Shown piece by piece: positions 37,492-60,314 of a stretch of DNA of 64,000 nt. The stretch's first letter is position 1. Every line of letters starts with the position of its first letter. The notes below the pieces were generated by a model. That model was not told where the DNA came from. It did no database searches and saw only the letters and a list, made by a program, of their open reading frames with translations. Both the position numbers and the translations under genes were made by a program. The DNA is from a plasmid. The stretch lies in sequence record NZ_LC532224.1. One strand, 5' to 3'.

Positions 37492-37631
37492 AGGGAGCCG
37501 TTAACGACCTGATGGCGGTTGTTCTGGAAAGCTATCTTCGGGAGGAATTCCCCGATACGGGCAAACGAAATGAGTCGCAGAAGAGGTCAATCGACGACAC
37601 CATTTCGATAGTCCGCTCCTATCTCCGTTAA
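37492..37631 (+). pseudogene. 3' fragment of a second FrmR/RcnR-family regulator gene, truncated by the IS.
   Basis: It encodes …GAVNDLMAVVLESYLREEFPDTGKRNESQKRSIDDTISIVRSYLR, homologous to the FrmR C-terminus [19 protein letters not shown]…[13 protein letters not shown]. Confidence 0.65.
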
Positions 37632-40701: not shown

Positions 40702-40715
40702 AAAGGGCTGTGTCG

Positions 40716-42775: not shown

Positions 42776-43206
42776 GATCTTCTCCTTCTTGCGTGCGGAA
42801 AGGAAATGCTGCCCCGCGGATTGGGGTATCAATCGAGTTTAGCTGCCATAACAGATCTCGCGATCGGCGAAAGGACGATTAGGATGTTTCTTAACTAAGT
42901 GCATTGAAGTCTGTAAGACAGGTACTTACCGATGAAGGCTGCCTGGAAAACGTAAAAACATCACACGTTAATCCGGTTTTTTTAAGCAGGCAAGGGATTA
43001 CGGACAGCTTTGAGCGAGAAGCGGATAAAGTAAATCTATCTCATTTCTGCATTGTGCCAGAAGTAGACATAGGTGAATTAGGTAACCCTAGAGATGCACT
43101 TTGAATCAATGATATGAAATGCTGAAAAGGTAATTAACTAATTCAAAATTTGAATAATCAGTTATCTCTTCCATGCTTAATACGTAACCTTAGCTAAGGA
43201 GAAATT

Positions 43207-43533
43207 ATGTTAGACGAATACAAAAAATGCATCGAAGCCTGTTATCTATGTGCAACGGCATGTGATAACTGTGCGGCTTCGTGTCTCGACGAAGAGAATC
43301 TGGAGATGATGCGCGAGTGCATAAAACTGGATATGCAGTGTGCAAATATCTGCCGTCTTGCAGCTCAATTCATGACACTAAATAGCGGGTCTGCCCAGGA
43401 TCTTTGCCGTCTTTGCGCTGATGTTTGTCAGAAGTGCGGTGACGAGTGTGGAAAGCATGAACATGACCATTGTCAGGATTGCTCAAGCGCTTGTCATCAC
43501 TGCGCCGAACAATGCAGAAAGATGGCCGCCTGA
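43207..43533 (+). CDS. Cys-rich four-helix-bundle copper-binding protein (DUF326, Csp/YhjQ-like).
   Basis: 108 aa with many regularly spaced Cys (CxxxC) in predicted helices. Confidence 0.65.
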   Translation: MLDEYKKCIEACYLCATACDNCAASCLDEENLEMMRECIKLDMQCANICRLAAQFMTLNSGSAQDLCRLCADVCQKCGDECGKHEHDHCQDCSSACHHCAEQCRKMAA

Positions 43534-43550
43534 GAAAAACTCAAATTACC

Positions 43551-43574
43551 AAACCCGCTTCGGCGGGGTTTTAT
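43551..43574 (+). terminator. Rho-independent terminator after the csp-like gene.
   Basis: aacccgc-ttcg-gcggggtt followed by a T-tract. Confidence 0.6.
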
Positions 43575-43884
43575 ATTCCCGGTAATAAGTCGTAGAAGGA
43601 TGAGATAGATGAGTTTAAGAGTACGGGCGGGAAATAGATCTACTCGAAAGTACTAGCCTCAATGACAAATTCTGGCACAGATTATTTGATTGGCTCAATG
43701 TCCGTTTTCGCTGACAGCGGACTGCACCCCGCCGGGGTGACCGCTTCGTGCCAGAATTGGACGTTTCCAAAATCTGCATGCACTAATCGGTGGAGAGCAG
43801 ATCTCACTGCATAGCCATGCAGACGCGCAGAAATCATCAGGGGCGTTTGAAAGGTGCCGGAAACAGGCGGGAGGCCGCAGAAAC

Positions 43885-44578
43885 GTGCTGAGGGCGCCTG
43901 CGGCGGTGCGCCCAAGGGTTGTTATGTTTAATATGGCAGAACTTTCCTGTCGCTATCATTTTGACGCCCGCTATTCGCTCATAGATATGCCTGTCGCGTT
44001 TGCGGCTTTACTTGTTATACCCAACCTGCCTGATTTTTATCGCCAGCATCCCGGAATTGAAATTATCCTGAGCAGCTCAGACCGCCGACGGAATATGCTG
44101 CATGATGGCCTGGACTGCATACTGAGGGTGGGGGAGCTGGACGATGGCGACTATATCGCAAAGGAGGTGGGAACCGTTAAAATGACGACCTGCGCCAGTC
44201 CTGCGTATCTTGATCAACACGGCACCCCGGAAACAATGGACGAGTTGCAGCAGCATCAGGCCGTCAACTGGATTAACAGCAGCAACAGACAAGTTATGCC
44301 CTGGACATTCGGGACGTCAGAGGGCTCCACCGAAATTGAACTTCCAGGCAGGCTTGTCGTGGATAACTCAGAAGCCTACATTGCAGCAGGCCTGGCGGGG
44401 CTGGGAATACTACAGGGCATGAATATTTTTTTGCAGCCTTATCTCGATCGCGGGCTGTTGGTAGAGGTTCTGCCAGATAATACGTCCCCGAATCGCAAAC
44501 TGTAACTTCTGTATCCGCACCGCCATCTCTCCCGAAAAGTACGGGCGTTTACCGACTGGCTGGAAAGTTTATTGTAAA
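43885..44578 (+). pseudogene. LysR-family regulator remnant. Only the substrate-binding domain is present: the HTH is missing and there is a 3' frameshift.
   Basis: A LysR C-terminal domain without the N-terminal HTH. The conserved C-terminal tail (…RAFTDWLESLL) is in another frame. Confidence 0.6.
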
Positions 44579-44618
44579 CGCCTGGGGGCCTGCAGCCTGC
44601 TGGTACGTGCGCTGCCTT

Positions 44619-45278
44619 TTATCGGCCCGCCAGCTTCTGTATGGCTTCACGGACAGGAGCATCGCCAGACGTCAGCTCAATGATGACGCGGCTGACGGCA
44701 GGTTGCTCAATGAGTTCAGCCAGCGTAGCCGCCACGTCATCACGGGGCACGTTACCATACGGGATGGCCAGGCCGGCACGTACATAACCCGTACCAGTCT
44801 TATCCTGCAGCGCGCCGGGGCGCAGGATCACCCAGTCAAGCTCGCTTTGTGCTAGTTCCACATCGGCCATTTTTTTAACACGCATATAATTTTCGAATGA
44901 TTCAGAAGTGGTTTCTCCCCGTGCGGACTCCGGGAATGCAGAAACGAGCAGAAAGCGAGACACACCGGCACTGAGGGCGGCAGCTACCGACTTTTTCAGC
45001 CCTTCGCCGTCGACCGCATTGGTCATCTCCTGTCCCCCCTTACCGCCGGCACCGGCAGTAAACACCACTGTATCACTACCTGCAAAGTGCATCGCCAGCG
45101 CAGCTGCATCCAGCTCTGTCAGGCTCCCACTGACGGGCTCAGCACCCAGCTCGCCTAGCAATGCCTGCTGCTCTGGCTTACGGTAGAGGGCACGAACAGC
45201 ATGCCCCCTACCTGAAAGGATCCTGCACAGACGCTGGCCGATTTTGCCTGCACCACCGATAATGAAAACATGAACCAC
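44619..45278 (-). CDS. NAD(P)-binding atypical SDR / NmrA-like protein.
   Basis: MVHVFIIGGAGKIGQRL Rossmann motif. Confidence 0.7.
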   Translation of the reverse strand: MVHVFIIGGAGKIGQRLCRILSGRGHAVRALYRKPEQQALLGELGAEPVSGSLTELDAAALAMHFAGSDTVVFTAGAGGKGGQEMTNAVDGEGLKKSVAAALSAGVSRFLLVSAFPESARGETTSESFENYMRVKKMADVELAQSELDWVILRPGALQDKTGTGYVRAGLAIPYGNVPRDDVAATLAELIEQPAVSRVIIELTSGDAPVREAIQKLAGR

Positions 45279-45572
45279 AGTTGTCTCCTTCTGGGGTTAT
45301 GATGTGTCCGAAATTATAACCTGACATCAGGTCAGTTCCTTTGAGCCTGACCGATTGCACTGCATGCTGCTGCCAGCACCAGACAGCTGGTCAGATACTC
45401 AGTTGTTCTTATAGCTGAGAACAACAGCCGTACCGATTTAGCTCTCCCGTCACGATGAGAACTCCTGAACCGGTTACACGCAATGCCGGCCAATATCTTC
45501 CGTTATATTCGAAAGATCCACGCAAGTTACTGAAGTGCGAGGGACGCAATGTGTACCTTGAACGAACTGAAG

Positions 45573-46415
45573 TCAGCGGAACCCTGAAGGTTCGATTCCA
45601 TAGCGTTCAGAAAACTGCTTGCTGAAGCTCGATAGTGAATTGTAACCCACCCGCCCCGCGACCGTTTTTACCGGCAGCGTCGATGTCATCAGCAGGCGGA
45701 GAGCCTCCGCGATACGTGCATCGGCGATAACTGAGCGTAAGCTGGTTGACTCACTGGCCAGGTGGCGCCGAAGCGTGGGGCCACTGAGTCCCGTCAGATC
45801 TTCAATTTCAGCAGCACTCCAGGGATGAGCCGGTTTGTCCGCTACCATCTGACGGATTTTCATGGCCAGACTTGGCTGCCGGGCTCGCAGCAAAGCATGG
45901 TATCCCATGCCATAAAGCCAGAGCACCACTTCAACCATGGCGTGCAGGGAAAGCGGACGCTTCCCTTCCCGCATTGCGGCTGTCCAGCGGTTAAGGGGTG
46001 AAAGAAGAGCTGATACGGAAATGGCTGCGATGCTGCCGGTGTCCTGTGGTGGTGGTGCGGCAAGTAACAGCCTGGCTGCTTCAAGCTGTTCCTCCGCGAG
46101 CACCACGCTCAGGGCAACAAACTCACCACTTTGTTCTGAAGGGGCATATTCTATATCGATGCTACGGGCATTCGGGACGACCATAATCTCGCCCGGGATC
46201 ACCCGGTGCCATTTCTCATTTTCACGATACCGGAATTCTCCTTCCAGCGGGAAGGAAAGGGTCGCACCTTCCACCTCGAACTTCTTTACCTGATGCGTCT
46301 GTTCTGCGCGAAGGCAATCGCAGGGAAGTGGAAAACGGGAGCGTGCCAGGGTAAGAAGCTCAGCGAGGAGATCATCAACGGGAGAATCGGAAAAGCTGAC
46401 TGTTTGCATATTCAT
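45573..46415 (-). CDS. AraC/XylS-family transcriptional regulator.
   Basis: C-terminal double HTH (…LTGLSGPTLRRHLASESTSLRSVIADARIAEALRLLMTS…GYNSLSSFSKQFSERYGIEP). Confidence 0.75.
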   Translation of the reverse strand: MNMQTVSFSDSPVDDLLAELLTLARSRFPLPCDCLRAEQTHQVKKFEVEGATLSFPLEGEFRYRENEKWHRVIPGEIMVVPNARSIDIEYAPSEQSGEFVALSVVLAEEQLEAARLLLAAPPPQDTGSIAAISVSALLSPLNRWTAAMREGKRPLSLHAMVEVVLWLYGMGYHALLRARQPSLAMKIRQMVADKPAHPWSAAEIEDLTGLSGPTLRRHLASESTSLRSVIADARIAEALRLLMTSTLPVKTVAGRVGYNSLSSFSKQFSERYGIEPSGFR

Positions 46416-46484
46416 CCGGAATTTGACTTTGACCGCTATTATACGTCGCCATATACAAAAGCATACAGCGACGCGTGCGGTTGT

Positions 46485-47336
46485 CTATTCCCGGATGACA
46501 AAAATCAGGCCGATTATAGTTATTGCCATACCCACAAGCATGGGCAATGTAATGGCCTCTCCAAACAGCAACCACGCTTCAGCTGCCGTGAGAATGGGAA
46601 CCAGGTAAAAGTAAGTAGCGACTTTGGTTGCTTCACCGCTTCGTATCATAAAAATCAGCAACATAATCGCCAGAACCGATACGCCAATAACCAGCCAGCC
46701 CAGACCCAGCGCAAATGATAAGCTCCACTGCGTCGGAGCAGATTCGAACATCAGGCTAATTGCACCCATCGATATTGTCAAAGTGACGTACTGTAAAAAC
46801 GTGTTCGCAAAGATATGTCCATCTCCCTGAGCACGGCGCTGATAAAGCGCTCCGATCGTTACGCCAAATAACCCCAGCATGACCGACCCAAAAGCCACAG
46901 GATCCAGTGCAAAACTATGCTGGCCTGGCGAGAGCACCAGGAAAACGCCCGCAAAGCCAATCGCAATACCCAGCCATTTCCGGGGATGCAGGGACTGACG
47001 GTGCATGAGTGAAACCAGTATTGCAGTCAGTACCGGCTGCAGGCCGGTGATGAGCGCCACAATGCCTGACGGCATGCCACGATGGATGGCATAAAAGCAT
47101 CCGCCCAGAAAGAAGCTCTGCAGGAAAAGTCCGACAATCAGGTTGCGAACCATTCCTCTGCCGGACGGAAAACGGGCCCTGAACCCCAGTGTAAGCAGCA
47201 GAAGGACCAGACAGGAAAATGCGCCACGCAGGAATAAAAGATGAAACGGCGCGCTGTACTGCACGGTAAATTTGGCTGCGACAAACCCTGACTCCAGAGG
47301 AATACAAAAAGCCAGGGCGCAAGAGTAATGAGCCAT
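46485..47336 (-). CDS. DMT-superfamily (EamA-like) transporter.
   Basis: 283 aa with 10 TM helices. Confidence 0.7.
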   Translation of the reverse strand: MAHYSCALAFCIPLESGFVAAKFTVQYSAPFHLLFLRGAFSCLVLLLLTLGFRARFPSGRGMVRNLIVGLFLQSFFLGGCFYAIHRGMPSGIVALITGLQPVLTAILVSLMHRQSLHPRKWLGIAIGFAGVFLVLSPGQHSFALDPVAFGSVMLGLFGVTIGALYQRRAQGDGHIFANTFLQYVTLTISMGAISLMFESAPTQWSLSFALGLGWLVIGVSVLAIMLLIFMIRSGEATKVATYFYLVPILTAAEAWLLFGEAITLPMLVGMAITIIGLIFVIRE

Positions 47337-47442
47337 TTTTTTGTGAGGCAGTGATATTCATAGTATTGCAGGTGGGTTCTTGTCGGGCGATATGAAAGGG
47401 GATCTTCCCGGTCACTATTGTGTGCACCGGGAAGGAAGGTGA

Positions 47443-48318
47443 TCAGACTGCGGGTGACCACAGGTCGTAATTCAGTGCGAAGCTGTTACCTTCACGGATA
47501 ACCTTACCGGTAGTAGGCAGGTTGAAGTGCATACCACTGACAGCCAGGTTATCGCTCGCTGCGCGGTCAAGCACTTTGCTACGGATGGCCGCCGCCGCCG
47601 CAGGATCGCTGTCGAACGCGATAGTAACGTCAGGCTGAGCAACCTGAATGTGCGGGAAGTGAACAATATTACCCCAGATGAGCAGCGACTCTTTTTCATC
47701 ACCCAGCAGATAACCGGTATGTCCTGGTGTATGGCCGAACAGCGGTACAGTCTGAATACCTGGTAAAATCGCTTCCTCGCGGAATGGCACCAGTTTGTCG
47801 TCATAAGCGCTGAAGGCGTTCCTTGCTACTTCAAAGAACGGCTTGAATGCGTCAGGCGCGCCAGCGGAAATGGTTTCATCACGCCAGAAAGCGAGTTCTT
47901 TCTCATGCACAAACAACTGCTGAACATTGCGGAAAACGGGAGTCTGCAGGGGGCCTGCAAGCCCGCCGATATGGTCAGGATGCGCGTGAGTCAGGAGAAG
48001 GGTATCAATCTGAAGCGGGTCAATGCCTGCCGCGGCCAGGGCTACCTGAAGCCGACCGCCCCAGCCATTGATACCTCCGGCACCACTGTCAATCAGGATG
48101 GTTCGCTCAGGCGTCTGGATAACGTAGACGTTGATATTAATACGGGGTACTGCTGGCACACCGCGCTTCTGCAGTAAATCCTCGGCACGTGAGCCGTCAA
48201 TACCAGACAGCAGCTCAAAAGATACGTCCAGATAGCCATCACTCAGCATGGTCACAGTCATGTCACCTACTTTTTTGCGATTGATAGCCGGGGCCTGCCA
48301 GTTCAGTTGTGAAGTCAT
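47443..48318 (-). CDS. MBL-fold metallo-hydrolase.
   Basis: HAHPDHIGG metal-binding motif. Confidence 0.7.
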   Translation of the reverse strand: MTSQLNWQAPAINRKKVGDMTVTMLSDGYLDVSFELLSGIDGSRAEDLLQKRGVPAVPRININVYVIQTPERTILIDSGAGGINGWGGRLQVALAAAGIDPLQIDTLLLTHAHPDHIGGLAGPLQTPVFRNVQQLFVHEKELAFWRDETISAGAPDAFKPFFEVARNAFSAYDDKLVPFREEAILPGIQTVPLFGHTPGHTGYLLGDEKESLLIWGNIVHFPHIQVAQPDVTIAFDSDPAAAAAIRSKVLDRAASDNLAVSGMHFNLPTTGKVIREGNSFALNYDLWSPAV

Positions 48319-48400
48319 ATTGGTCTCCGTTACGATTAGAGGTCATCAGGTTTTACTTTAGCAATAGTAACGAAATTTCTGGTTCGAACTGCTCATCCTG

Positions 48401-49333
48401 CTACGTAAACCGCTCATTCTTAAAATCCGGAGCACAGCAGGTTATATTGCTTTTGCCTTTCTCATGTAAGGTGTCGGTATTATCTTTACCGGAGCCTGTA
48501 ATGGACATTATTGGAATTATCATGTCGGCGGGAAAAGCCTCTGACCAGTCCTCAAGCACCCGACAATAGTGTCCCGCCTCAATCCCCGCCAGGGCAGAAG
48601 ACTCCGGCAGGTAGGCCAGGCCGTAGCCATCTTTTACTGCCTGAAGCATTGGATAAATGCTTGAAAAAGTAAGCTGCCCGTCCACTTTTTTCACAATCTC
48701 CCCCTGCCTGACAAATTCCCAGCCATACAGCGGGCCTGTGGGTGACAGACGTATATTGATGCAGTCATGTTTTTCCAGCTGAGAGGGATGTAGCGGCAGA
48801 CCTCTTTCTGCAAGATAGGTGGACGATCCAATGACGACAAACCGTATGTCCGGTGCGATTCGGACGGCCACCATATCCTTTAATATGTCATCACCAATTC
48901 GGACTCCGGCATCAAAATTGCCCTCAACAATGTCGACAAAACCGTTCTGCTGCGACATTTCCACCTTGATATCCGAATATTTTTTTAGTAACGGTGACAA
49001 TCGTGGCCAGAGACATTCATGAATCATGTGATCTGATACCGTAAGTCTGACCAGCCCAGCCGGTGTATGGCGCAGTCTCTGAAGAGCTGTCACGCCCGCT
49101 TCAATGCGCGCAAGACCGGGTTCAAGCGTCAGTAATAATTGTTTACCGGCTTCGGTGACAGCCACCCGCCTGGTTGTACGCATAAGTAACGGCATGCCAA
49201 CGCGCTCCTCGAGACGACGTATCGTGTGTGAAAGCGTGGATGCCGAGATCCCGAGGCGGACAGCAGCCCGTGAAAAACTGCACTCCTGTGCTACTGCCAT
49301 GAATGCAACATAGTCATTAAAATCGTGACGCAT
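48401..49333 (-). CDS. LysR-family transcriptional regulator.
   Basis: N-terminal HTH (FMAVAQECSFSRAAVRLGISASTLSHTIRRLE) plus the substrate-binding domain. Confidence 0.75.
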   Translation of the reverse strand: MRHDFNDYVAFMAVAQECSFSRAAVRLGISASTLSHTIRRLEERVGMPLLMRTTRRVAVTEAGKQLLLTLEPGLARIEAGVTALQRLRHTPAGLVRLTVSDHMIHECLWPRLSPLLKKYSDIKVEMSQQNGFVDIVEGNFDAGVRIGDDILKDMVAVRIAPDIRFVVIGSSTYLAERGLPLHPSQLEKHDCINIRLSPTGPLYGWEFVRQGEIVKKVDGQLTFSSIYPMLQAVKDGYGLAYLPESSALAGIEAGHYCRVLEDWSEAFPADMIIPIMSITGSGKDNTDTLHEKGKSNITCCAPDFKNERFT

Positions 49334-49593
49334 ACCGTTCCCGTTCAGGATCTCCGATAACATTATCAGAACCATTTAGGTTCATGATGCCGATTCTGTG
49401 AGCCATCAGGCAACCCCCCCGTTCCGCTCATCCGATCATAATTTTTATAAATCTAGATATTGGTAAATCTCAATATGTGGAATAAAGTGTCGTGGTTCTG
49501 CGGCTACATCGGCCGAACGACGACATGCCAGGTCGTAAATGCTGAGACATGGCGTTTCAGTGATATTGAAAATTCGCTATATCAGGATATGTA

Positions 49594-50718
49594 ATGAAGA
49601 CGAAAAACCTGTTCTCTCCCACCAGACTAGGTCCCTACACCCTGAAGAATCGTGTTGTACTTCCGCCTTTAACCCGCTCACGGAGCTCACAACCGGGTGA
49701 TATTCCGAACGAACTGATGGCTGAATATTACGCACAGCGCAGCAGTGCCGGGTTTATGGTGACCGAAGGAACACAAATCGAACCTCGTGGGCAGGGTTAT
49801 GCGTGGACCCCGGGGATCTACAGCTCACGGCAAGTGGAAGGCTGGAAGAAAGTGACGCGGGCAGTGCATGAAAAAGAAGGCATCATTTTTGCCCAGCTCT
49901 GGCATGTCGGAAGAGTATCCCATAACTCCCTGCAGCCATGTAACGCCTCGCCTGTCGCTCCGTCGGCGATACCGGCAGGGGAAAACGTTAAGGTATTCAT
50001 CGAAACCGGGCCGGGAGAGGGTGCGCTGGCTACCGCTTCCTGCCCCCGCGCACTGGAAAAAGAGGAAATTAGTGAGATTGTCAGGATGTACGCCGGGGCA
50101 GCTCAGAACGCCCTTGATGCCGGTTTTGACGGTGTGGAAATTCACTGTGCAAATGGATACCTGGTTAACCAGTTCATGTCATCCCATAGCAACAAAAGAG
50201 AGGATGAATATGGTGGCTCATTACATAACCGGCTGCGGTTTCTGCGCGAAGTGACGCAGGCTGTCGCTGATGTGGTCGGTAAAGACCGTGTGGGAGTCCG
50301 TTTTGCTCCGCTCTTTCAGACCACGGATGAAGTAAGGGTCTATCTTGGCCTGGTGGAAGATGATCCCCATGAAACCTATACCGAAGCCGTTAAAATTCTT
50401 GAAGAAATCGGAATAGCCTATATTTCTCTTGCTGAAGCCGACTGGGATGATGCTCCCGAATTGCCTGAAGCATTCAGAGCTGAAGTCCGTAAGTTATTCA
50501 GCGGTGTAATTATGTATGCCGGGCGATATACGCAAGAAAAAGCCGAACGGATTATCGGTGCTGGCTGGGGAGACATTATCGGATTTGGCCGCCCGTTCAT
50601 AGCTAATCCGGATTTACCGCAGCGCCTTTATCATGAATGGCCACTGAATCCGGTCGATCCAACAACCATGTATGGTGGAACGGCAAAAGGCTACACAGAT
50701 TATCCCGCCTTTGGCTAA
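49594..50718 (+). CDS. Old-yellow-enzyme family NADH:flavin oxidoreductase (NemA-like alkene reductase).
   Basis: Global similarity to N-ethylmaleimide reductase (…HCANGYLVNQFMS…). Confidence 0.8.
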   Translation: MKTKNLFSPTRLGPYTLKNRVVLPPLTRSRSSQPGDIPNELMAEYYAQRSSAGFMVTEGTQIEPRGQGYAWTPGIYSSRQVEGWKKVTRAVHEKEGIIFAQLWHVGRVSHNSLQPCNASPVAPSAIPAGENVKVFIETGPGEGALATASCPRALEKEEISEIVRMYAGAAQNALDAGFDGVEIHCANGYLVNQFMSSHSNKREDEYGGSLHNRLRFLREVTQAVADVVGKDRVGVRFAPLFQTTDEVRVYLGLVEDDPHETYTEAVKILEEIGIAYISLAEADWDDAPELPEAFRAEVRKLFSGVIMYAGRYTQEKAERIIGAGWGDIIGFGRPFIANPDLPQRLYHEWPLNPVDPTTMYGGTAKGYTDYPAFG

Positions 50719-50792
50719 CCATTCTTATGAGCATCAGCTTTTCAAAAGCTGATGCTTAACGTAGAGAAGTATCGTAACATTGCAATTCCTCA

Positions 50793-51122
50793 ATGCGACA
50801 AGTGACAGAGTTTATGCCTGATATTGATTTGAATGACGTGATTAAGGCGCTGGGAAACCCTGTTAGAAGAAAAATTCTGCATATGCTCAAGGAACCGAAA
50901 ATACACTTCCATCAGCCTTATGCTGATGCGGACGAGTTCGGTGTGTGTGTCAGTATCATTCAGGAAAAGGTCGGGCTCTCACAGTCTACCGTTTCTCTTT
51001 ACCTCTCAGCTCTTCAACGGGCACAACTTGTTACTTCTCAGCGCATCGGTCCCTGGACGTACTACAAACGTGACAATGATAAAATAAGGGTTGTTCTTGA
51101 GTTGCTGAAAAATACAATCTGA
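50793..51122 (+). CDS. ArsR/SmtB-family HTH regulator.
   Basis: ALGNPVRRKILHML…LSQSTVSLYLSALQRAQLV. Confidence 0.65.
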   Translation: MRQVTEFMPDIDLNDVIKALGNPVRRKILHMLKEPKIHFHQPYADADEFGVCVSIIQEKVGLSQSTVSLYLSALQRAQLVTSQRIGPWTYYKRDNDKIRVVLELLKNTI

Positions 51123-51653
51123 TACAGGACTGAGCACATTCAGTGTAACAGTACCGGGGGTTCGTACTTGCGATCCCGGCAGGCATTCCATGAAAGCGCA
51201 CTAATTCCTCAATATCAGGCTGCAGACCGGTCATAAGAGGCTAATAGTTTTGCAAAATATCCACCAGTTTGGGTCAAATCACTCTGTCGGTTGGTGTGCA
51301 TACTCGGTGCAAGGACCTGCAGATATTTAAGATGGCGGATAGCTTGTTACAGTGCCGCTGATGACATTCCGACCCTGTTGCCGTCCGGGTAAGATAATAC
51401 CTCTGACAGCGGTCATAAAAGCCCAACATAATTGTCTTTCGAGCCATATATTAATCGCTCATCGCGCTCTCTTTTTCGAAGAGGTGTCACTTAATCATGA
51501 TCGGTCAGTACAAAAAGACAGTGCTTTTCCAAATTCCGGACGGTTGTATGCGAAAACGGTGAAGCTCAACAAATGGTGTCATCGCTGTGCAATGCTCTGC
51601 GGGCTCATTCTTTCAGTTAACTGTTTGGTTACAGCTTCAATGAAGTATTTCAG

Positions 51654-52439
51654 TTAATTCACAGCGAGGGTTTGAGGAAACCACGCTGTGATTACCCAAC
51701 GCTCATCCGGAGCATCCGGATTGAACTGTCGCTGGAGCTTGTTGGGCGACACGATACTGGCCTCGCCTTTACATGCCCTCGGGCTCCGGTATCCGACCTG
51801 AGCCTTTATCCCGACACGTTTCATCAGTCGCCAGACTCTGTTCACTCCGCACTGTTGCCCGCTGTCCCGCAGATCCAGATGGATTTTGCGATAACCATAG
51901 ACGCATCCCGATTCCAGCCAGAACTGTTTAATCTGTCCTGTCAGTCTCAGGTCTGCCTGATGGCGTTGTGAATGCGGCTGCTGAAGCCAGGCGTAAAAAC
52001 CACTGGGATGTTCATCCAGCACCCGACAGAGCAGGCGAACAGGCCAGCAATAGGTGTTGTCACGAATAAAGGCGTACCTCAGTCGGACAGCTTTGCGAAG
52101 TACGCCGCGGCTTTTTTTAATATGTCCCGTTCGTCGGTAACCCGCTTCAGCTCTTTCTGAAGACGGCGGATCTCGGCCTGAGCATCTGACTGTTCTTTAT
52201 TAGTGGAAGAATCCGGACCGTAGTTCTTTATCCAGGCGTAAAGGCTGTGGGTGGTGATATCGAGACGCGTTGCAACGCTGGCAACAGAATAACCGCGATC
52301 AACAACCTGTTTGACTGCTTCAATTTTAAACTCTTCAGGATAACGCTTACCGCTCATGGGCACCTCTCTTTAAGTCATCTTAAATGACTCTGAGGTGTCT
52401 GTTAAACCTGTGGCGATTCACCTCGCGTCCTTCCGTTCA
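51654..52439 (-). mobile_element. Truncated IS3-family element. orfA is intact and orfB is cut after about 110 codons. Only the orfA-side inverted repeat is present.
   Basis: orfA MPMSGKRYPEEFKIEAVKQVVDRGYSVASVATRLDITTHSLYAWIKNYG…. orfB ends …DERWVITAWFPQTLAVN* instead of WVTDITY…. Inverted repeat at 52364-52439. Confidence 0.8.
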
Positions 52440-52447
52440 GTATAGCC

Positions 52448-52876
52448 TCAGTCCCTGACACCACCCGAGAACGGAATGACGTCCCCTTTCTCCCTCCCGG
52501 TGTTGCGTTCAAGCTCCCTGACATACTGCTGTAAAAGTATAAGGTTATGTAACAGCTCTACATTTTCAGCCATCATCTTTTTGATTTCTTCCCTCAGCTC
52601 ATTTCTCTGACGGCGATACTTTTCTTTCAGCTTGATCTGCTGCTCAATGCCCTGCTCATCAACCGGCGCGGTGCCCTGGCACGTTTTTTTCAGACTGCGG
52701 ATAGCCTCCCTGACCTGCCTGTACTCAGGACAGTTATAATTCAGGGTGCCGTTTGCCAGCCCCGCTCGTTTTTCCACAGCATACTGGCTGATACGCTCCC
52801 CTGATAACATCAGTTCCCTCAGGGCCTGCTCTGCTCTTGCCTGTGTTTTTTTAACCCCCGACTGTTCGTTCGTCAT
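52448..52876 (-). CDS. Small coiled-coil protein (142 aa), TnpC-like accessory gene of the recombinase module.
   Basis: Terminal gene after three recombinases. Its start lies 4 bp after the upstream stop. Confidence 0.5.
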   Translation of the reverse strand: MTNEQSGVKKTQARAEQALRELMLSGERISQYAVEKRAGLANGTLNYNCPEYRQVREAIRSLKKTCQGTAPVDEQGIEQQIKLKEKYRRQRNELREEIKKMMAENVELLHNLILLQQYVRELERNTGREKGDVIPFSGGVRD

Positions 52877-52879
52877 GCT

Positions 52880-54997
52880 CTATTCATCCTTTTCAAAAAA
52901 ACGGACAGCATCTGCATAAAAATCTCTCTCAAGCATCAGAAAATCCCTGTCAGCCTGAGGAGCATTATTTCGCACGGCAATCTCCAGAAGGTTGTCATAA
53001 TGAGCCATCCTGCGTTTCCACACGGGAACAGAATCAGCTCCGGCCAGCATGTTCTCACATCCCGGATTGCAGGACGCTGACTGAACAACCGCCTTAAACT
53101 CGCAGTCATGGCCATTCATGCAATAAAAACCGTTTCCAAGAGATACCAGTTTTTGCCCGCCTCGTTTAGCCATGCTCATCGCTTTTTTCAGTGTAGGAAA
53201 CGTCATCTGATGTAAGTGCCCACCTCTCTGGGACATCAGTAACTTCCCGCCTTCGCCATAAAGCAGGCCTTCATGCTGATAAGAAACAGCCCTGGAAGCT
53301 GAGAGTTCGGTATCAACCCTCTCAATCTCGGCAGCGAATGCCTGAGGGATCGCCCGGCTAAAATGCGAAGCGTTGAGTGCACCGGACATATACCACTCCG
53401 TCATGCCTCTGATTAAGTGCTTAAACTGCCGGATAAGATCATTAGTAGAAATCAGATCAAGACGCCTGAGGTGTACAGCAAGTGAACGGCGAAACTGATG
53501 GGTTCGCAATGGCCAGAAAGCCCCCTCCCGAATCTCCATCGCAACGCGTTCATCATCACGTATGTTTGGATTTAAAAGCCTGAACTCATCAATATGGTCA
53601 CGTCGGATGAACAGATGGTGTCTTTTCACAAATTTCTTTGCCCACTCAGTCTGGCGCTGCGTCCCCATAAAAGAGAGTTTTTGCTCCGAGAACCACGACC
53701 TGATATTTAAAGACAATGGAACATTGTCCAGCGTCTTCCCGTCCAGGCCTGTCATGATTTGATTAATTCTGCGTAAATGCTGAAAAGGCTTTTCCACATA
53801 GCGACAAACAACCCAGTCTTCGTGACTTCCACCTTCCGGGGCGAACTTATGCAACACCGAACGAAGTCCCAGGATATCACCATCATAAATCAGTGAACCG
53901 TGCATCACGCCAAGCACTTCGCTGTGTCTCATCCCCGACATGGCCTGTATCACATTCATGACTTTTAACGTCAGCTCAAAATGCCAGGTGTTCAGCTTTA
54001 TGTGATCAACGCCAATAAAATCAGATCTCCAGCGCTTATTTTTATGTACCGAGAACCAGCCCTGCATCCCGGGGCCAAGTGTCGCGAAAAGCGCCCGAAT
54101 TTCCCCGGCAACAATATTGTAGTAATACGCGGCCCGGTAATCCGGTATGCTTTTTGCTGTCCCTCTTTTACGGGCTTCCAGCATCGACGTATAGTAAGGC
54201 GAATCATAAAAACCGTTTATGATAGCGCACAGCCGGGAAAACCCGTCAAAATCGAAATCACTGATTTCAGCATCCAGTTCAGTAATCAGCCCTTCCCAGA
54301 CAGACATCATAAGACTGAAAGGCATACAATATGTCTGGTTTGAATCATCCACACTGTTGTAACTGTCGAAGCTAATATCAGGAAAGTAACCGTATTTTCG
54401 AAGACGGGTATGACCTGTCAGCGAGATATCCGCCAGGTCCATAAAGTAATTACGTAATGTTCTTTCAGAACGCTTCCTGCCGTGCTCATCCTCCTCCTTC
54501 ATCTTTACAATGAAAGCATTCCGGACAAGCGGAAAACGAAGCTGAAACAGACTGCGATACCCCATAGACTCAATAATACGGGCTCCCGCCACAATGTTTG
54601 CACATTTCCGGATCAGGGACTGCGTCTTCGCGGTCCTGCCGACAATCCAGAGCAGGCTGGCTGAGATGATTTTGGCTTCAAGACGCAGTTCAGGATCCCG
54701 TATGCCTGAAAAATTAACGGTTCTTAACGTTTCACCAATATGGGTTCTGACATAGCGATTGGTCCAGACATCATCCCTGAAATAAATATTCAGCGTCTCC
54801 TCATTGATAAAACGCATATCATGTTCATCTGAGCTGGCGATAACCAGGCAGTTATTCAGACGTTCAAAGCTTTTGTTTTCTAGTGCCTCACAGATGATAT
54901 CCTCAGTCGGAAACTCATCCCCTGAACGAAGCGGCGTTCCGGCAGGAAACTCCGCCATTCGACTACGGCTTACCTCTTTTTTCTTCAAATCTGCCAT
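52880..54997 (-). CDS. Large tyrosine recombinase (705 aa).
   Basis: Box I SGMRHSEVLGV. Box II HQFRRSLAVHL … KHLIRGMTEWY (catalytic Tyr). Confidence 0.7.
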   Translation of the reverse strand: MADLKKKEVSRSRMAEFPAGTPLRSGDEFPTEDIICEALENKSFERLNNCLVIASSDEHDMRFINEETLNIYFRDDVWTNRYVRTHIGETLRTVNFSGIRDPELRLEAKIISASLLWIVGRTAKTQSLIRKCANIVAGARIIESMGYRSLFQLRFPLVRNAFIVKMKEEDEHGRKRSERTLRNYFMDLADISLTGHTRLRKYGYFPDISFDSYNSVDDSNQTYCMPFSLMMSVWEGLITELDAEISDFDFDGFSRLCAIINGFYDSPYYTSMLEARKRGTAKSIPDYRAAYYYNIVAGEIRALFATLGPGMQGWFSVHKNKRWRSDFIGVDHIKLNTWHFELTLKVMNVIQAMSGMRHSEVLGVMHGSLIYDGDILGLRSVLHKFAPEGGSHEDWVVCRYVEKPFQHLRRINQIMTGLDGKTLDNVPLSLNIRSWFSEQKLSFMGTQRQTEWAKKFVKRHHLFIRRDHIDEFRLLNPNIRDDERVAMEIREGAFWPLRTHQFRRSLAVHLRRLDLISTNDLIRQFKHLIRGMTEWYMSGALNASHFSRAIPQAFAAEIERVDTELSASRAVSYQHEGLLYGEGGKLLMSQRGGHLHQMTFPTLKKAMSMAKRGGQKLVSLGNGFYCMNGHDCEFKAVVQSASCNPGCENMLAGADSVPVWKRRMAHYDNLLEIAVRNNAPQADRDFLMLERDFYADAVRFFEKDE

Positions 54998-56784
54998 ACC
55001 GGAGCCACACCTTCTCGCTGAAGTTTAACGCGCGCTTTTTTCAGGATCGCCTCATCTACCAGCCCAAGCCGTAAATCAATCTTCAGGAGTAACGTTTCAT
55101 AACGCTCCACAGCATTGACCGAACCGATGTACAACGGTTTTCCATACTCGATAGCATGCCTGAATGACAGCAGGAGCCATACAGACTCCAGCGTTTCCAC
55201 AACGCAACTTTTTGAACATTCGACACAATGAGAAAAATCCGCACAAGCCTTTGGTGTCCGGCCAAATCGTTTTTGCTTTTTTATAAAGCGCAATTCAATA
55301 TCTGTAGGCGGCTCCTGCGATCGACATCCCAGGCCATTCAATAAAAGATCCACACCCTCATCGCTTCCACGCAGATCGATCCCCAGCTCATCAGCAACTT
55401 TTACCCGCTCGGATAACGCACGTGTCGCAATCCCCTGATTCATAAGCGTATCAAGTGCAGCACTGAAGTTTTCCTTCGCCCCCTGTGGGTTACCTGCAGC
55501 ATAATTCCGCCTGTAAGTGCCCCAGTTATGCTGTGCTTTTTCCGCCGTAATCAGACCATTCTTTAATGTTCTGTCCGTATACTGCTCAGACGTTTTGCGC
55601 AAGCCAGAAACGGTAATTGATGGAAGCGAGGGATTAAGCTGCCGCATCGTGGCCCACGCCCCCTCAGAGTTAGAAAATTTAGTCAGATGACTGGGATTAA
55701 GAGAATAAAGCTTATGGAATTTCACCTGCGGCTCACTCAGAAACAGCGCCTGTACCGGAGGGAAGTTATCTGCGGAAACCAGATAGTTAACGATGTCGTC
55801 CCTGAGCCTGATAAAAGACAGAAACCAGTAATAGCCCGCACGTTTGGTCACATACTCCGATTTACCTATCGTCAGACGTATATACTTATTCGCTCTCCCC
55901 TTATAAACATAATCAGTGCTGATACCCTTTTCATCCAGATGTATATCATCCCGCGTCAGACCCAGAACCTGAGAGGTGTTTCCCCATGTGTGGTAACAGA
56001 ACAGAAAAAAAGAAGTAAGAAAGTAATTTTCCAGAACGTCCCTGATGATGATCTCTGCCCTGCTGACCCCGTTCTCTCCCGGATACCGGAAATACGCTTC
56101 ATAAACAGGTGCCAGCAAAGACGGTGAGAAATGCCGCACCCCTTTTTCCGATTTAGCGATATGCTCCCGGATACATCCCGCAAGGAACTCATTCATGGAT
56201 GACAACTGCCTCAGGATCTCGGAAAGTTCATTCCTGGTATAGCTATCCCTTCCCTGCTGCTGATACGTTCCTTTCGGTAAGAATTCATATTCATACCGCC
56301 TCTGAATCTGCCCGCCCGTAAGCAAAAACCGGTTGACCACGGACAAGTAGTGTCTTGCCATCCTGACTGAAATTTTTCGCCGACGAATATCGTTCATGAG
56401 ATGTTTAATATACATTTCAACGCCTTCAGCCGTGCCATAGTCATACTGATTGACTGACTGCCATATAAAAAACATATTGAGATAACGGAAAATGGTTAAC
56501 CTTCCGGCGGGACGGTAAGACAGAAGAAATCGTTTCAGAGAGGCAATAAAATCGCGTTTTTCAGGGCGGGCAAGATGCGAATGTTCACTAAACCATCCGG
56601 GGAGCAACACATAATCTGAAAAATGAGCCTGAAGATAAACGTCAAGTAAATAATATCGGTTCAGATCCCGCTGAGTGATGTGTCCGCTGACCGTCTCCCA
56701 TGACAGCACATTTTCGGCCATCCACGTTATCTGCGTTTCACTCCGGCTCATATATGGCTCCATCGCGACCTGCAGCACCGTCAA
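54985..56784 (-). CDS. Tyrosine recombinase (599 aa, TnpB-like).
   Basis: Box I LGLTRDDIHL. …SGLRKTS… AQHNWGTYRRNY. Confidence 0.65.
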   Translation of the reverse strand: MTVLQVAMEPYMSRSETQITWMAENVLSWETVSGHITQRDLNRYYLLDVYLQAHFSDYVLLPGWFSEHSHLARPEKRDFIASLKRFLLSYRPAGRLTIFRYLNMFFIWQSVNQYDYGTAEGVEMYIKHLMNDIRRRKISVRMARHYLSVVNRFLLTGGQIQRRYEYEFLPKGTYQQQGRDSYTRNELSEILRQLSSMNEFLAGCIREHIAKSEKGVRHFSPSLLAPVYEAYFRYPGENGVSRAEIIIRDVLENYFLTSFFLFCYHTWGNTSQVLGLTRDDIHLDEKGISTDYVYKGRANKYIRLTIGKSEYVTKRAGYYWFLSFIRLRDDIVNYLVSADNFPPVQALFLSEPQVKFHKLYSLNPSHLTKFSNSEGAWATMRQLNPSLPSITVSGLRKTSEQYTDRTLKNGLITAEKAQHNWGTYRRNYAAGNPQGAKENFSAALDTLMNQGIATRALSERVKVADELGIDLRGSDEGVDLLLNGLGCRSQEPPTDIELRFIKKQKRFGRTPKACADFSHCVECSKSCVVETLESVWLLLSFRHAIEYGKPLYIGSVNAVERYETLLLKIDLRLGLVDEAILKKARVKLQREGVAPVWQI

Positions 56785-57985
56785 TCAATGCGTCCATGAC
56801 CCCGGCGACTGCATCAGAAATCTGGTTTTGCTGAAGAAAGACGATGTATTTCATCGTCGTATTTTCGCTTTTATGGCCCATCCAGTATTTTACTGTACCC
56901 AGCGCATTTGCGGCCTGATCGGGATAGCAACTCAGTGCCGAGCGTAAAAAATGGGTCGCAAACGTTGCCCGCAAATCATGGGGTTTATGTCTGAACACAT
57001 TTCCCGGAGCAGACCGGGCCAGGCGATGGCGAAAACTGTACCAGCGGGAGTAAAAGGCTTTTTCAGACATCCGTTTCCCGTTTGCCATTAAAAATAAAGG
57101 CTCGTGCCGCCCTTCCCCACCCTGTCGTGCACGCCATTTTTGGATCTTCTTTTCATACTCCTCATCCGCCAGATAATCCAGAACCTGCTCGTACAATCGT
57201 CTGGTGATGAAGAGTTCTCGCGTCATCCCAAACTTCGTATGAACTCCGCATCTCGGACCAATATGAAGCCCCCTGATGGTCAACTCAGATACAGGGACAC
57301 TGGCAAGGTACTCTTCAGTAAAGAGTGACGACGGCAGGGTCAGCATTTCATCCAGCCGTAACCCACAATTTTTCATCAGCACAATCATTAAACTGAACAA
57401 CCCGGACTCAGATTTCAGTGCCTCATCCAGGATATGAACCTCTGCATCATTCAGTGGGTTGATTGTCCTTTTTGTTGTGCTGGTTATCCTGATGGCAAGA
57501 TCCGAACTTATCACCTTGCGTCGCCCGTCAACGACTTTTTCGACCAACGTAAAAAATGAGCTGGCAGCCAGCTCACCACACTTGCCCAGAAATACGTAAA
57601 ACCGTCGGATAACGCTGATGTACACCGCCGCGGTGGATGAGGCGATGCGCCCCTGCCTTACGGCCCCCAGAAGATACTCCCTGAAGCCATATGTAGGGCT
57701 TTGGTATTTCAACGTTCCCGGGGTGAAAGGGTCAAGTCCGTTATCCTCCAGCCACCTTATCCAGCGTAAAAATGCCCGGGCTAAAGGCTTTAAATCCCTG
57801 GCCTGCAGGATAGCTTTATCCATAAGATAAAAGTGTACATATCGGCTCAGTTTTCGATTCTGGATGCCGCTAATATAAGGTATTTCAGCATACAGAAATC
57901 CGGGTTCAAATTTCAGTTTCGGCTCTGTTGCATCCAGTTTGCTGACACGCCCATAACGCGCATGAATGTTAGTGATTATCCTCAC
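56738..57985 (-). CDS. Tyrosine recombinase (415 aa, TnpA-like / XerD-like).
   Basis: GLRLDEMLTL, HDLRATFATHFL and MGHKSENTTMKYI give a complete R-H-R-Y set. Confidence 0.8.
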   Translation of the reverse strand: MRIITNIHARYGRVSKLDATEPKLKFEPGFLYAEIPYISGIQNRKLSRYVHFYLMDKAILQARDLKPLARAFLRWIRWLEDNGLDPFTPGTLKYQSPTYGFREYLLGAVRQGRIASSTAAVYISVIRRFYVFLGKCGELAASSFFTLVEKVVDGRRKVISSDLAIRITSTTKRTINPLNDAEVHILDEALKSESGLFSLMIVLMKNCGLRLDEMLTLPSSLFTEEYLASVPVSELTIRGLHIGPRCGVHTKFGMTRELFITRRLYEQVLDYLADEEYEKKIQKWRARQGGEGRHEPLFLMANGKRMSEKAFYSRWYSFRHRLARSAPGNVFRHKPHDLRATFATHFLRSALSCYPDQAANALGTVKYWMGHKSENTTMKYIVFLQQNQISDAVAGVMDALIDGAAGRDGAIYEPE

Positions 57986-58598
57986 AGTCTGTCGCCCTGA
58001 AACGCCACCTCATGCCTACACTATAAATCCGGAAGAAGAAAAAACAAACAACCAGGTTGCCGGGAGTGAATATGCAAATCAGGAGGAAAGTAAAAGATGT
58101 AACGACACCATCACGATGCAATACATTGACCTCAACACGTTACCCGGACCATACGTGATAAACATCACAAATCCTTTGAGTGAAGAACTTAAGATGTGAT
58201 TTTCATTTCCCGGCACAAACCGTGCCCTTAAAAAACAGGCAACGGATACATCTTAATGCCAGAAGTAAACCTTAATTGATTGAATACAGCCTGAGTCCAT
58301 TGCAAAAATAACACACAGGGTAAATTCGCATATACAGAACCCAACGAAAAGCAAAAGAAACCTGTAACACATTTCGTTTACCTGTCACTTTCAATTGTAA
58401 AAGCCAGCAGAAAAAGCGCATATAACTATATTTATCCCTGCGGGGACTTTTGTTTGTGCTATATATTTTTTACAGAGAACCGCAACGCGTCCAAACACAA
58501 GAATATATTTACCTCTGGAAAATGGTCTGACTCCCTTTCACGTGGTTGTAGTGACCTGTTCTGTGATTCATGTAATGTCTTTTCTGGATGAGGAAAAT

Positions 58599-59234
58599 AT
58601 GTCATCACTGATATTTTATACAGACGAAGCACAAGCACTGATTGTAACAGATACCCTTGCCGTCACCGATAATGGGGAGCCGTTATCTTTTGTTTCCAAA
58701 GCAGGTTACATCCCCCAGCTAAGAACCATCATAGCAGGTACGGGGGCAGGTGGATTTTCTAACACCTGGTTGCTTGAAGCATCAACCAGAATGGTCGTAT
58801 CAGGTATACAAAATCTCAATTATCATACATCGGCCTGTCTAAGGAGGCTGTGGAAACAATACAAGCATGACCATGCAATTCCCTCTTCTTCAACGGTGAC
58901 AACCAGTGTTTATCAGTTCGCAATTTGCGAGGAAACAGGAAATATCGTTTCGTTCGCCTATCGCTCAGTCCATGATTTCGAATCAGAGCAATTACAATAC
59001 GGAACAGGAGTAAAACCTGAGTGCCAAATCCTGGATGGGGATTTGTTGCAGACAATTCCTGTAATGATGAATGAACAAAGGGCTATACAGGCGACATACT
59101 CACACCCGGAACGGATCCATATTGGCGGTGAGATGATTGCGCATTATCTGACATCATCTATGTATCAATGCTTTAAGATTGGGGAATTTGAGGATTTCAG
59201 AACTCAGGGAGAGTATATATTGAGCAGGATTTAG
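58599..59234 (+). CDS. Hypothetical protein (212 aa).
   Basis: ORF (MSSLIFYTDEAQALIVTD…). The internal start is chosen. No recognisable domain. Confidence 0.45.
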   Translation: MSSLIFYTDEAQALIVTDTLAVTDNGEPLSFVSKAGYIPQLRTIIAGTGAGGFSNTWLLEASTRMVVSGIQNLNYHTSACLRRLWKQYKHDHAIPSSSTVTTSVYQFAICEETGNIVSFAYRSVHDFESEQLQYGTGVKPECQILDGDLLQTIPVMMNEQRAIQATYSHPERIHIGGEMIAHYLTSSMYQCFKIGEFEDFRTQGEYILSRI

Positions 59235-59261: not shown

Positions 59262-60314
59262 TTAACAGGCTTGCTGAACATTAAAAGGATATCTCTCAAT
59301 TACGATGAATAGCTTGAATTCTAAAAATAGAAAAGTAGAGTTTAACTCTAAATACATAAAAACAAGAGTAAGCGAGCACCCATATCGAGCCCCACAAGCT
59401 GATGTTCGAGTGGGTTTCTCCGGCGACCAGATACACTCCCCGGTGGCGTCTTTATAAAGCGTTGCCAGGCTGAAGTTATCCGGCATAAAGCTTGGTAAAG
59501 GGAAGCGTGATTCGGAACCACAGGCCATCAGAAAAGACCAGATGTCCTGAGTGCGCCACTCCTTTACCGGATAGAGTTCACCACCGTGCTCAGTCAGGGT
59601 TACTTTCCTCGCCTGCCCTCCCATTTTGAGGATATTTCCTGCCCTTCGGGCACTTTCATCATCCCTGGAGCCCAGCATCAGGCATACCCTGCTTCGAACG
59701 GATGCCGGGGCGTTTTTCAGGTAACGAGCTTTGGCCTGGCGCAGGGGCGCGATTTTGTAGTCGGTTGAGCACTGTCGGGTAGAAGAATTAGTCCAGGTCG
59801 GAAGTCCGCGCCCAGTCAGAATGCGGCCGACCCAGCTCTGCGTAAGAGACGGTCGGGCGACAAGGACTGTGACCGGTAGCTGGTGTTCAGCAATGAACAT
59901 TCTGAGCTGGTTGAGAACCTGTGAAGCCTGATAGTGCATCTCAGGGTTTTCGATCAGCGTATCGGACATCTGAATGAAATGATGTTCGCTGATATTTGTG
60001 CCGTTACGTACTGCCCTGATCAATGCCATCAGAAACAGGTGCAGAAGAGAATGGGAGTCTTTGCCGCCACTGTATCCCACGCACATTGTCCAGCCGTCCG
60101 TAATAGCCTGATAAATAGCAGATGTGGCTGACATGACCAGAGAAGAAAGACTCACAGTCTCCTTTTCATCGGTATAGTTCAGATCGGCATCGGTTGTCAG
60201 GGTCTCCCAAACATCCGCCCATTTATCATGTTTCAAAATGGCAGCATTAGCCGCCTCAGGAAAAATAACTTCTGAGGATAATTCAAGGAATGAGTCGCTT
60301 TTTTCAATAAACAT
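59262..60314 (-). CDS. PAPS-reductase/DndC-like PP-loop ATP pyrophosphatase family protein (350 aa).
   Basis: CVGYSGGKDSHSLL PP-loop (SGGxDS) motif. CGARYGC sits near the C-terminus. Confidence 0.6.
   Translation of the reverse strand: MFIEKSDSFLELSSEVIFPEAANAAILKHDKWADVWETLTTDADLNYTDEKETVSLSSLVMSATSAIYQAITDGWTMCVGYSGGKDSHSLLHLFLMALIRAVRNGTNISEHHFIQMSDTLIENPEMHYQASQVLNQLRMFIAEHQLPVTVLVARPSLTQSWVGRILTGRGLPTWTNSSTRQCSTDYKIAPLRQAKARYLKNAPASVRSRVCLMLGSRDDESARRAGNILKMGGQARKVTLTEHGGELYPVKEWRTQDIWSFLMACGSESRFPLPSFMPDNFSLATLYKDATGECIWSPEKPTRTSACGARYGCSLTLVFMYLELNSTFLFLEFKLFIVIERYPFNVQQAC

Follow-up and report, generated by a model that had tools for sequence, protein, structure and literature searches.

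A probable strand-biased circularizing integrative element on an IncHI2 plasmid, with base-precise ends in a PAPS-reductase-family gene and in ygiQ

A stretch of 64,000 nucleotides from the plasmid sequence record NZ_LC532224.1, called the window below, contains four genes, intA, tfp, intB and srap, which lie in that order on the minus strand, tightly packed at one end of a ~38-kb mobile element. We very probably have here an SE, an integrative element that circularizes with strand bias (Nonaka 2018/2022; Idola 2023), on an IncHI2 plasmid. The coordinates of the four genes and of the other features are listed in Table 1; the list of open reading frames (ORFs) exactly confirmed the four same-strand genes named in a preliminary description of this DNA. 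The overlaps given there had been swapped, as the one between intA and tfp is 47 nt with the mechanically assigned TTG start of tfp, and the one between tfp and intB is 13 nt. The ATG at 56751 is the more likely start of tfp because GGAG lies 6 nt upstream of it and RefSeq starts the 588-aa protein there, and from this codon the intA/tfp overlap is 14 nt. The intB stop codon and the srap ATG have 3 nt between them, rather than the 4 bp stated previously.

Table 1. Features of the element, its junctions and its target sites. Coordinates are those of the window, and element orientation is the window's minus strand.
Feature	Position	Strand	Description
intA	56738..57985	-	415 aa, GTG start; tyrosine recombinase of ordinary size, complete catalytic set
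tfp	54985..56751	-	588 aa from ATG 56751; tyrosine-recombinase-fold protein without Arg-I and His-II
tfp, mechanical ORF	54985..56784	-	599 aa from TTG 56784
intB	52880..54997	-	705 aa; large tyrosine recombinase, complete catalytic set, C-terminal Cys cluster
srap	52448..52876	-	142 aa; small auxiliary protein, TnpC-like, HTH-like N-terminus, C-terminal coiled-coil-like region
C end, intA-proximal terminus	59346..59370	-	reads TACTCTTGTTTTTATGTATTTAGAG in element orientation
C' end, srap-distal terminus	21400..21430	-	...AATGATCAGAATTATAGGGTG in element orientation; present in IncHI2 and E. coli ygiQ copies
attL, 6 bp of target beside C	59371..59376	-	CTCGCT; identical to the empty site in pEclC2185CTXM15
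attR, 6-bp footprint beside C'	21394..21399	-	CTCCTT; not target-derived, differs from both empty sites (CTCGCT, TTCTTT)
Target gene, 5' part	59371..60314	-	794-aa PAPS-reductase-family gene cut in codon 315; collinear with pEclC2185CTXM15 (L002) 8001-12631
Target gene, 3' part	19949..21393	-	collinear with L002 1-8012; 470-aa hypothetical protein in pFJMB80066_1
ORF without family	58542..59234	+	mechanical ORF of 230 aa, RefSeq protein of 211 aa; internal to the element, with intA on one side and the C end on the other
Cargo	21431..52447	.	from annotation of collinear plasmids, ORF list and Pfam
IncHI2 gene attB			GATATGGGTG-CTCGCT-TTGCACAG (GGGTG-CTCGCT-TTGCAC)
IncHI2 gene attL			GATATGGGTG-CTCGCT-TACTCTTGTTTTTATG (GGGTG-CTCGCT-TACTC)
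IncHI2 gene attR			AATTATAGGGTG-CTCCTT-TTGCACAG (TAGGGTG-CTCCTT-TTGCAC)
E. coli ygiQ attB			GGCGGCTG-TTCTTT-CTGTTCTA (GGCTG-TTCTTT-CTGTTC)
E. coli ygiQ attL			GGCGGCTG-TTCTTT-TACTCTTG (...TTCTTT-TACTC)
E. coli ygiQ attR			AATTATAGGGTG-CTCCTT-CTGTTCTA (...CTCCTT-CTGTTC)

Judged by their residues, the tyrosine recombinases IntA and IntB both have a complete catalytic set. In an alignment of seven SE modules, R210, K251, H336, R339, H371 and Y380 of IntA and R357, K384, H500, R503, H527 and Y536 of IntB are invariant, which gives both proteins the R-H-R-Y set plus the lysine and the second histidine. Three cysteines of a C-terminal cluster in IntB (C626, C643 and C647) are also invariant in these modules. 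IntA is the sole large core protein to reach the Pfam Phage_integrase family (E 8.5e-9). The protein encoded between the two, Tfp, matches the fold of tyrosine recombinases without their full catalytic motif. The Arg-I position is occupied by Asn in 34 of 39 homologues, and the His-II position is variable with no conserved residue. The preliminary description had assigned box I and box II signatures to all three large proteins, which holds for the 415-aa and 705-aa proteins and fails for the middle one. Two residues of Tfp are kept in all 39 homologues, namely Lys284, the β-hairpin lysine, and Tyr417, which stands at the canonical H-x8-Y spacing; Arg385 is kept in 35. This invariant pair and the near-invariant arginine are an observation added here. 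Furthermore, hhalign pairs the Asn of Tfp with Arg-I of IntB, and the N-terminal domain of Tfp with that of IntA.

A word-indexed homologue search returned only 8-9 relatives, and an exhaustive HMMER search of 1.84 billion proteins gave 81 Tfp representatives. Neither the 588-aa protein with its 39 homologues nor the 705-aa protein with its 7 matched a recombinase family in Pfam or NCBIfam, and searches of Tfp and IntB against PDB sequences, by phmmer and by profile hidden Markov model, returned nothing significant. A profile search with IntB did find PF00589-bearing relatives (P0095 and P0096), and the assignment of IntB is based on these, on the invariant motifs and on published work. Srap is 48% and 42% identical to the fourth gene products of two relatives (L011 and L013). 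Both Tfp and IntB end in a cysteine cluster, formed in Tfp by C476, C503, C509 and C512 (residues 473-512) and in IntB by residues 626-647. These clusters may be a metal-binding domain, and no mention of them was found in the portions of the SE literature examined.

Some 130 large Enterobacterales plasmids (200-450 kb) have the 6.2-kb stretch that holds the module at 100% identity, and the four core genes are intact and identical across these plasmids and several chromosomes. The same four-gene unit is found in four relatives with only 23-40% identity in Tfp, where the proteins measure 411/589/701/148, 409/593/715/141, 411/577/658/146 and 440/576/698/152 aa in the order IntA/Tfp/IntB/Srap, and tfp lies between both catalytic recombinase genes in every relative examined. 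Given this identity across plasmids and the retention of the unit in distant relatives, the module is not a chance arrangement. The notion of unrelated phage integrase pseudogenes with independent histories, which the preliminary description had named as the outcome that would overturn its view, is rejected, as the genes are conserved together in all four relatives.

The element occupies positions 21400-59370 (37,971 bp), and next to it lies a 6-bp footprint, at 21394-21399. We were able to define its ends to the base by comparison with replicons lacking the segment, as had been proposed. The IncHI2A plasmid pEclC2185CTXM15 (L002) is without the module and is collinear with the window on both sides, at 13389-21404 and 59370-64000; the segment is therefore a ~38-kb insertion in a backbone gene for a 794-aa PAPS-reductase-family protein, and the intact gene matches Pfam PAPS_reduct. 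Uninterrupted E. coli ygiQ provided the second empty site. The C end is identical against four flanks, those of the IncHI2 gene, its diverged homologue in pCFR-eb27, E. coli ygiQ and Enterobacter asburiae ygiQ. Insertion took place without target duplication at both the IncHI2 gene and ygiQ. An 11-bp imperfect direct repeat, AAGGAGCACCC / AGCGAGCACCC, was considered as a target duplication and rejected, since the E. coli copies show that the element carries AAGGAGCACCC along. A subterminal repeat, matching at 16 of 20 positions and located 55-90 bp from each end, is near chance level. intA lies 1385 bp from the C end, which puts the module 1.4 kb from the backbone junction, and the cargo runs leftwards from it for ~31 kb, to window position 21400. 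The module had been described as sitting at the edge where cargo meets backbone and as consistent with a role in moving a large site-specific element. Both views are borne out by a discrete, base-precise insertion with the module at one end.

According to the rule reported for SEs, the central 6 bp of the target stay beside C, and the 6 bp from the left flank of the previous donor land beside C'. The junctions fit this rule, with the target's central 6 bp beside C and a foreign CTCCTT beside C'. In the E. asburiae ygiQ copy, the attL flank ends ...GGCTG-CTCCTT and thus equals the attR 6-mer of the window. At the level of sequence, this fit to the footprint rule is suggestive and not proof. In pFJMB80066_1 (L003 8475-8489), the 6-bp block beside C' reads CTCATT, one base apart from that of the window; either a point mutation or separate insertions from different donors would give this variant.

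The right end of the element was found in 8 of 5,426 E. coli genomes searched, six times on the chromosome and twice on plasmids. Both ends are present on all six chromosomes, at 99.6-99.9% identity in most copies and at 93-97% in one chromosomal variant, and the five on which both were mapped have spans of 17.7, 17.7, 25.8, 38.7 and 63.9 kb. The element splits ygiQ in both chromosomal copies inspected. A scan with the 25-nt C end, covering one genome per species, added one more copy only, that in E. asburiae ygiQ. The two insertion points fall at the same position of a cysteine motif, CGARYGCS-L^C at codon 315 of the plasmid gene and CFGGCS-F^C in YgiQ, where ^ marks the point of insertion, and the target DNA has the consensus GGSTGYTCKYT^YTGY, encoding G-C-S-(L/F)-C. 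The attL-side half-site of the target resembles the C'-side end of the element (GGGTGCTCCTT). From the shared motif, the plasmid PAPS-reductase-family gene looks like a secondary target.

One relative (L011), with a Tfp 40% identical to that of the window, is inserted at the same ygiQ codon, and ygiQ targeting is therefore common to at least one distant relative. This relative lies at 3517-12406 of L011, which is from the 4.09-Mb contig ENA ERZ25073814 ctg9804, and the disrupted host fragment ends ...GCFGGCTF^TL before its stop codon. Directly after srap, a gene for a full-length 694-aa YgiQ paralogue follows, 68% identical to the disrupted host copy. From these sequences, it looks as though the L011 element supplied a substitute for the ygiQ that it destroys; the element in the window has no such YgiQ paralogue. 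Another copy of the window's SE is present in pCFR-eb27 (L001 27047-27120; IncHI1A/IncP), at the homologous codon of a diverged PAPS-reductase-family gene and beside the same CTCGCT, while the backbone further out, where alignable, is 65-75% identical to the window. This copy could represent an independent insertion in the same motif, or the element with short flanks could have been moved by recombination.

We surveyed the plasmid database PLSDB for the left and right junctions, using window positions 21250-21550 and 57986-61500 as queries. Of the plasmids with the backbone gene, 669 are uninterrupted at the site, the prototype R478 among them, and the attR junction is present on 316, meaning that either the element or its left junction is found on about a third. 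Some 110-130 plasmids keep the attL side together with the complete core module. From the difference between 316 left junctions and ~110-130 right junctions or core modules, many IncHI2 plasmids seem to hold an SE remnant without recombination genes. On some plasmids, the match resumes only at window position 60756.

The cargo includes a 109-aa ORF, HTH and TetR regulators, an oxidoreductase, IS1, and a KAP P-loop NTPase (Pfam KAP_NTPase) at 22053-26575 that is split by an IS3-family insertion sequence (IS) at 24892-26042. It also includes frmR-frmA-VOC-fghA at 31068-33830, a second, glutathione-independent formaldehyde dehydrogenase, a UvrA paralogue, and an SDR/AraC/DMT/MBL/LysR/alkene-reductase/ArsR-like cluster. 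No conjugation or mobilisation genes are present among the annotated cargo genes of the collinear records. Every copy of this SE has the ORF between intA and the C end; the ORF gave no match in Pfam and is without a counterpart at that position in the elements of pAQU1, pBT2436 and L011. The KAP NTPase measures 1091 aa and is intact in pFJMB80066_1 and the E. coli copies, and the IS ORFs that split it in the window are at 24892-25746 and 25743-26042. A group II intron (ltrA reverse transcriptase/maturase) at 34567-36090 (-) adjoins the UvrA paralogue, and on the related plasmid pCFR-eb27 this cargo holds two additional copies of IS110. Directly downstream of srap is an IS3-family remnant (51654-52363; orfA and a truncated orfB), and at this place a 17.7-kb E. 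coli chromosomal copy (L016 7658-8793) has an intact IS3-family element. Literature searches combining ygiQ with integrase, and IncHI2 with formaldehyde and integrase, found no description of this element; papers on IncHI2 plasmids mention the formaldehyde genes and draw no link to a mobile element.

SEs carry intA, tfp (the fold without the catalytic motif), the large intB and the small auxiliary srap in that order at one end, which is the arrangement seen here. For blastp comparison we used SE-Pda04Ya311 of pAQU1, for which strand-biased circularization has been shown experimentally, and SE-PaeBT2436 of pBT2436. Each window protein matched only its positional counterpart in both reference SEs, with 28% identity for IntA against SE-PaeBT2436 (E 4e-16), 20% for Tfp against pAQU1 (E 8e-8) and 23% for IntB against SE-PaeBT2436 (E 5e-11); the IntB match to pAQU1 has E 1e-7. 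Additional file 3 of Idola et al. (PMC10214605) lists tfp and srap orthologues that include genes of plasmids 100% identical to the window: NZ_CP026242 131014-131442 is entered as srap (WP_017384060) and 133551-135317 as tfp (WP_040113334), and identical genes on NZ_CP026391, NZ_CP026171 and NZ_CP043223 are entered as well. The module is thus already catalogued as an SE core, and the element is absent from the 37 SEs with published termini in the same paper. The preliminary description had suggested a Tn554-like or novel kind of element, poorly described in Enterobacteriaceae; instead, the class is a known one, and descriptions of SEs exist for Enterobacter, Leclercia, Salmonella and Kosakonia.

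Several points weigh against this assignment. Identity to the experimentally validated SEs is low (20-28%), and Srap matches Srap only at E 0.06-0.13 in a tiny database. An AlphaFold (AF2) model of IntB built from the 7-sequence alignment was unusable, with a predicted local distance difference test score of 40.6. The terminal inverted repeats (TACTCTTGTTTTTATGTATTTAGAG vs ...ATCAGAATTATAGGGTG) are weak, with matches at 12 of 25 positions and one shared ATTTAGA block. CTCCTT may be a fixed element end rather than a footprint; the E. asburiae flank match is the sole discriminator, and given codon constraints it would arise by chance about 1 time in 4 to 1 in 6. Finally, SE-6283, SE-6945 and three further SEs are the source from which circle formation, strand bias and the lack of an empty site are extrapolated.

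We compared the SE assignment with other systems that combine several recombinase genes. Genomic islands with three integrases (GInts; ginABCD) have a similar plan, with three recombinase-like genes and a small gene, cargo behind them, imperfect direct border repeats and site-specific insertion (PMC5385486), and they are reported to be commoner than SEs in Escherichia and Klebsiella. However, the degenerate protein of GInts is the product of the third gene (GinC), whereas here it is that of the second, and the third gene encodes a full catalytic set. The GinA-D proteins of the E. coli IAI1 GInt have 400/434/624/128 aa against 415/588/705/142 aa here, and none of the window proteins matched them by blastp at E <0.5, while each matches its SE counterpart. 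Published clustering separates the GinC/GinD families from Tfp/Srap, the window's genes appear in the published tfp/srap list, and none of six plasmid accessions looked up appears in the portion of the ginC/ginD list that was covered. With the degenerate gene in second place and no match at E <0.5 to GinA-D of IAI1, we rejected GInt identity, which we consider extremely improbable. The resemblance to the Tn554 tnpA-tnpB-tnpC module pointed out in the preliminary description is reasonable, and the SE literature itself draws this comparison; the protein that Tn554 does not have is, however, the 588-aa Tfp, and not, as was thought, the 705-aa, TnpB-like IntB. A Tn554-family transposon with an acquired extra recombinase would share the ordinary and the large R-H-R-Y recombinase, the small protein, and site-specific insertion with 6-bp carry-over. 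Furthermore, DUF6262, the TnpC family of the Tn554-type Tn6188 (PMC11947258), is matched by four of seven Sraps, that of the window (E 2.4e-5) and three others (E 1e-4 to 1e-3). These matches are all sub-threshold, the window's scoring 24.9 bits against the Pfam cut-off of 29 bits. In a metagenomic module with the same four-gene order (JGI metagenome L020 1200-6326; 375/554/639/140 aa), PF00589-positive large recombinases are linked with a DUF6262 protein. Against membership, Tn554 has no counterpart of Tfp, it is known only from Staphylococcus and Enterococcus, and according to the SE paper the proteins of SEs and those of Tn554 are not similar by BLAST. We conclude from the lack of a Tfp that the element is not a Tn554 member, and regard this origin as highly unlikely. 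All three large proteins of the L020 module match PF00589, and a matching module in another JGI metagenome (L019 742-4791) has a small protein that weakly matches DUF6262, which suggests, as far as sequences go, a wider IntA-Tfp-IntB-Srap superfamily bridging to the Tn554-type TnpC.

RIT elements were rejected on the sizes of the proteins (415/588/705 aa), the middle protein without Arg-I and His-II, and the presence of a fourth conserved gene, in agreement with the preliminary description, which had already set the module apart from them. A different kind of explanation is that the 38-kb segment is a mosaic produced by IS activity or homologous recombination, in which the recombinase genes do not move the segment and are passengers or phage integrases in decay. 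The cargo is IS-rich, with IS1, the IS3 family, a group II intron and, in relatives, IS110. It varies between copies from 17.7 to 63.9 kb, and the surplus of plasmids with the left junction points to later erosion by IS or deletion. Yet both ends are base-identical at unrelated targets, the plasmid gene and ygiQ; there is no IS at either end and no target duplication, and the sequence motif common to both targets is interrupted at the same codon. In addition, the four genes are intact and identical across ~130 plasmids and several chromosomes, and synteny of the module extends to relatives with as little as 23% identity. The mosaic origin is contradicted by the two independent, base-precise insertion sites and retains hardly any probability.

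If the element is an SE, its movement can be outlined from work on other SEs, in which all four genes are needed and only the top strand takes part in the attL x attR exchange. By analogy, the four proteins, expressed from a translationally coupled operon, would recombine attL with attR on one strand only. The product would be a nicked double-stranded circle (attS) carrying the 6 bp that flank the intA-proximal end, and as a copy-out process this would leave no empty donor site. The circle would integrate site-specifically, placing the target's central 6 bp beside C (attL) and the carried 6 bp beside C' (attR). The SE model predicts an attS junction of ...CAGAATTATAGGGTG-CTCGCT-TACTCTTGTTTTT, with the spacer from the attL flank, whereas a bottom-strand product would carry CTCCTT; a restored attB, ...ATATGGGTGCTCGCTTTGCACAGC, would not be expected. 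The element is without transfer genes and spreads aboard the conjugative IncHI2 plasmid.

The conservation of Tyr417, Lys284 and Arg385 raises the idea that Tfp is a half-active-site subunit rather than a dead scaffold, with its tyrosine donated in trans as in Flp, or with Tfp occupying the bottom-strand-cleaving positions. We put this forward tentatively and think it rather unlikely. If true, either role would make Tfp the part that imposes the one-strand-only exchange by which SEs are defined. A companion speculation is that this SE subfamily picks its targets via a DNA motif encoding G-C-S-x-C, hopping from ygiQ to the plasmid gene and so boarding conjugative IncHI2 plasmids; that it holds jointly with the half-active-site role of Tfp is likewise doubtful.

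The termini, the two targets with their shared motif, the footprint-consistent junctions and the prevalence on IncHI2 plasmids are new here. In the literature searched, no paper delimits this block as an SE, and no report was found of ygiQ or the plasmid PAPS-reductase-family gene as a target of SEs. IncHI2 plasmids play a major part in carrying last-line resistance genes such as mcr-9 and blaIMP-4. Recognition of the block as an SE, with ends defined to the base, accounts for where plasmid-borne frmRA-fghA came from, and chromosomal ygiQ is identified as the target of the element in E. coli and Enterobacter. Exact junction sequences are now available for mobility testing. SE biology gains from it a large enterobacterial member carried on a plasmid, together with a defined target motif and two footprint-consistent insertion sites.

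RIT elements also have three adjacent, overlapping tyrosine-recombinase-family genes, but their proteins of 315-410 aa all have the catalytic Tyr set, and the elements have no fourth gene, 34-bp terminal inverted repeats and usually no cargo. The Tn554 family (including Tn6188 and Tn558), set apart here by description, comprises three-gene elements of ~6-7 kb with strong target specificity and resistance cargo in Firmicutes. GInts (Bardaji et al. 2017) possess a four-gene operon of which all genes are needed for recombination, and some members leave no empty site. Among SEs, the element of the window is large, at 38 kb against a median of 15.7 kb. Its intA is 1385 bp from the end, with the extra ORF in between, whereas this distance is ~80-200 bp in pAQU1, pBT2436 and L011, and its terminal inverted repeat is weak compared with the 13-19 bp imperfect inverted repeats (motifs C and C') of SEs. 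It resembles SEs in its gene order with overlapping or abutting genes, in its catalytic IntA and IntB, fold-only Tfp and Srap with a C-terminal coiled-coil-like region, and in protein sizes (415/588/705/142 aa against 545/614/671/161 aa in pAQU1 and 429/576/679/154 aa in pBT2436). It further shares with them the lack of transfer genes, site-specific insertion without duplication, junctions consistent with a 6-bp fingerprint or footprint, and a gammaproteobacterial host.

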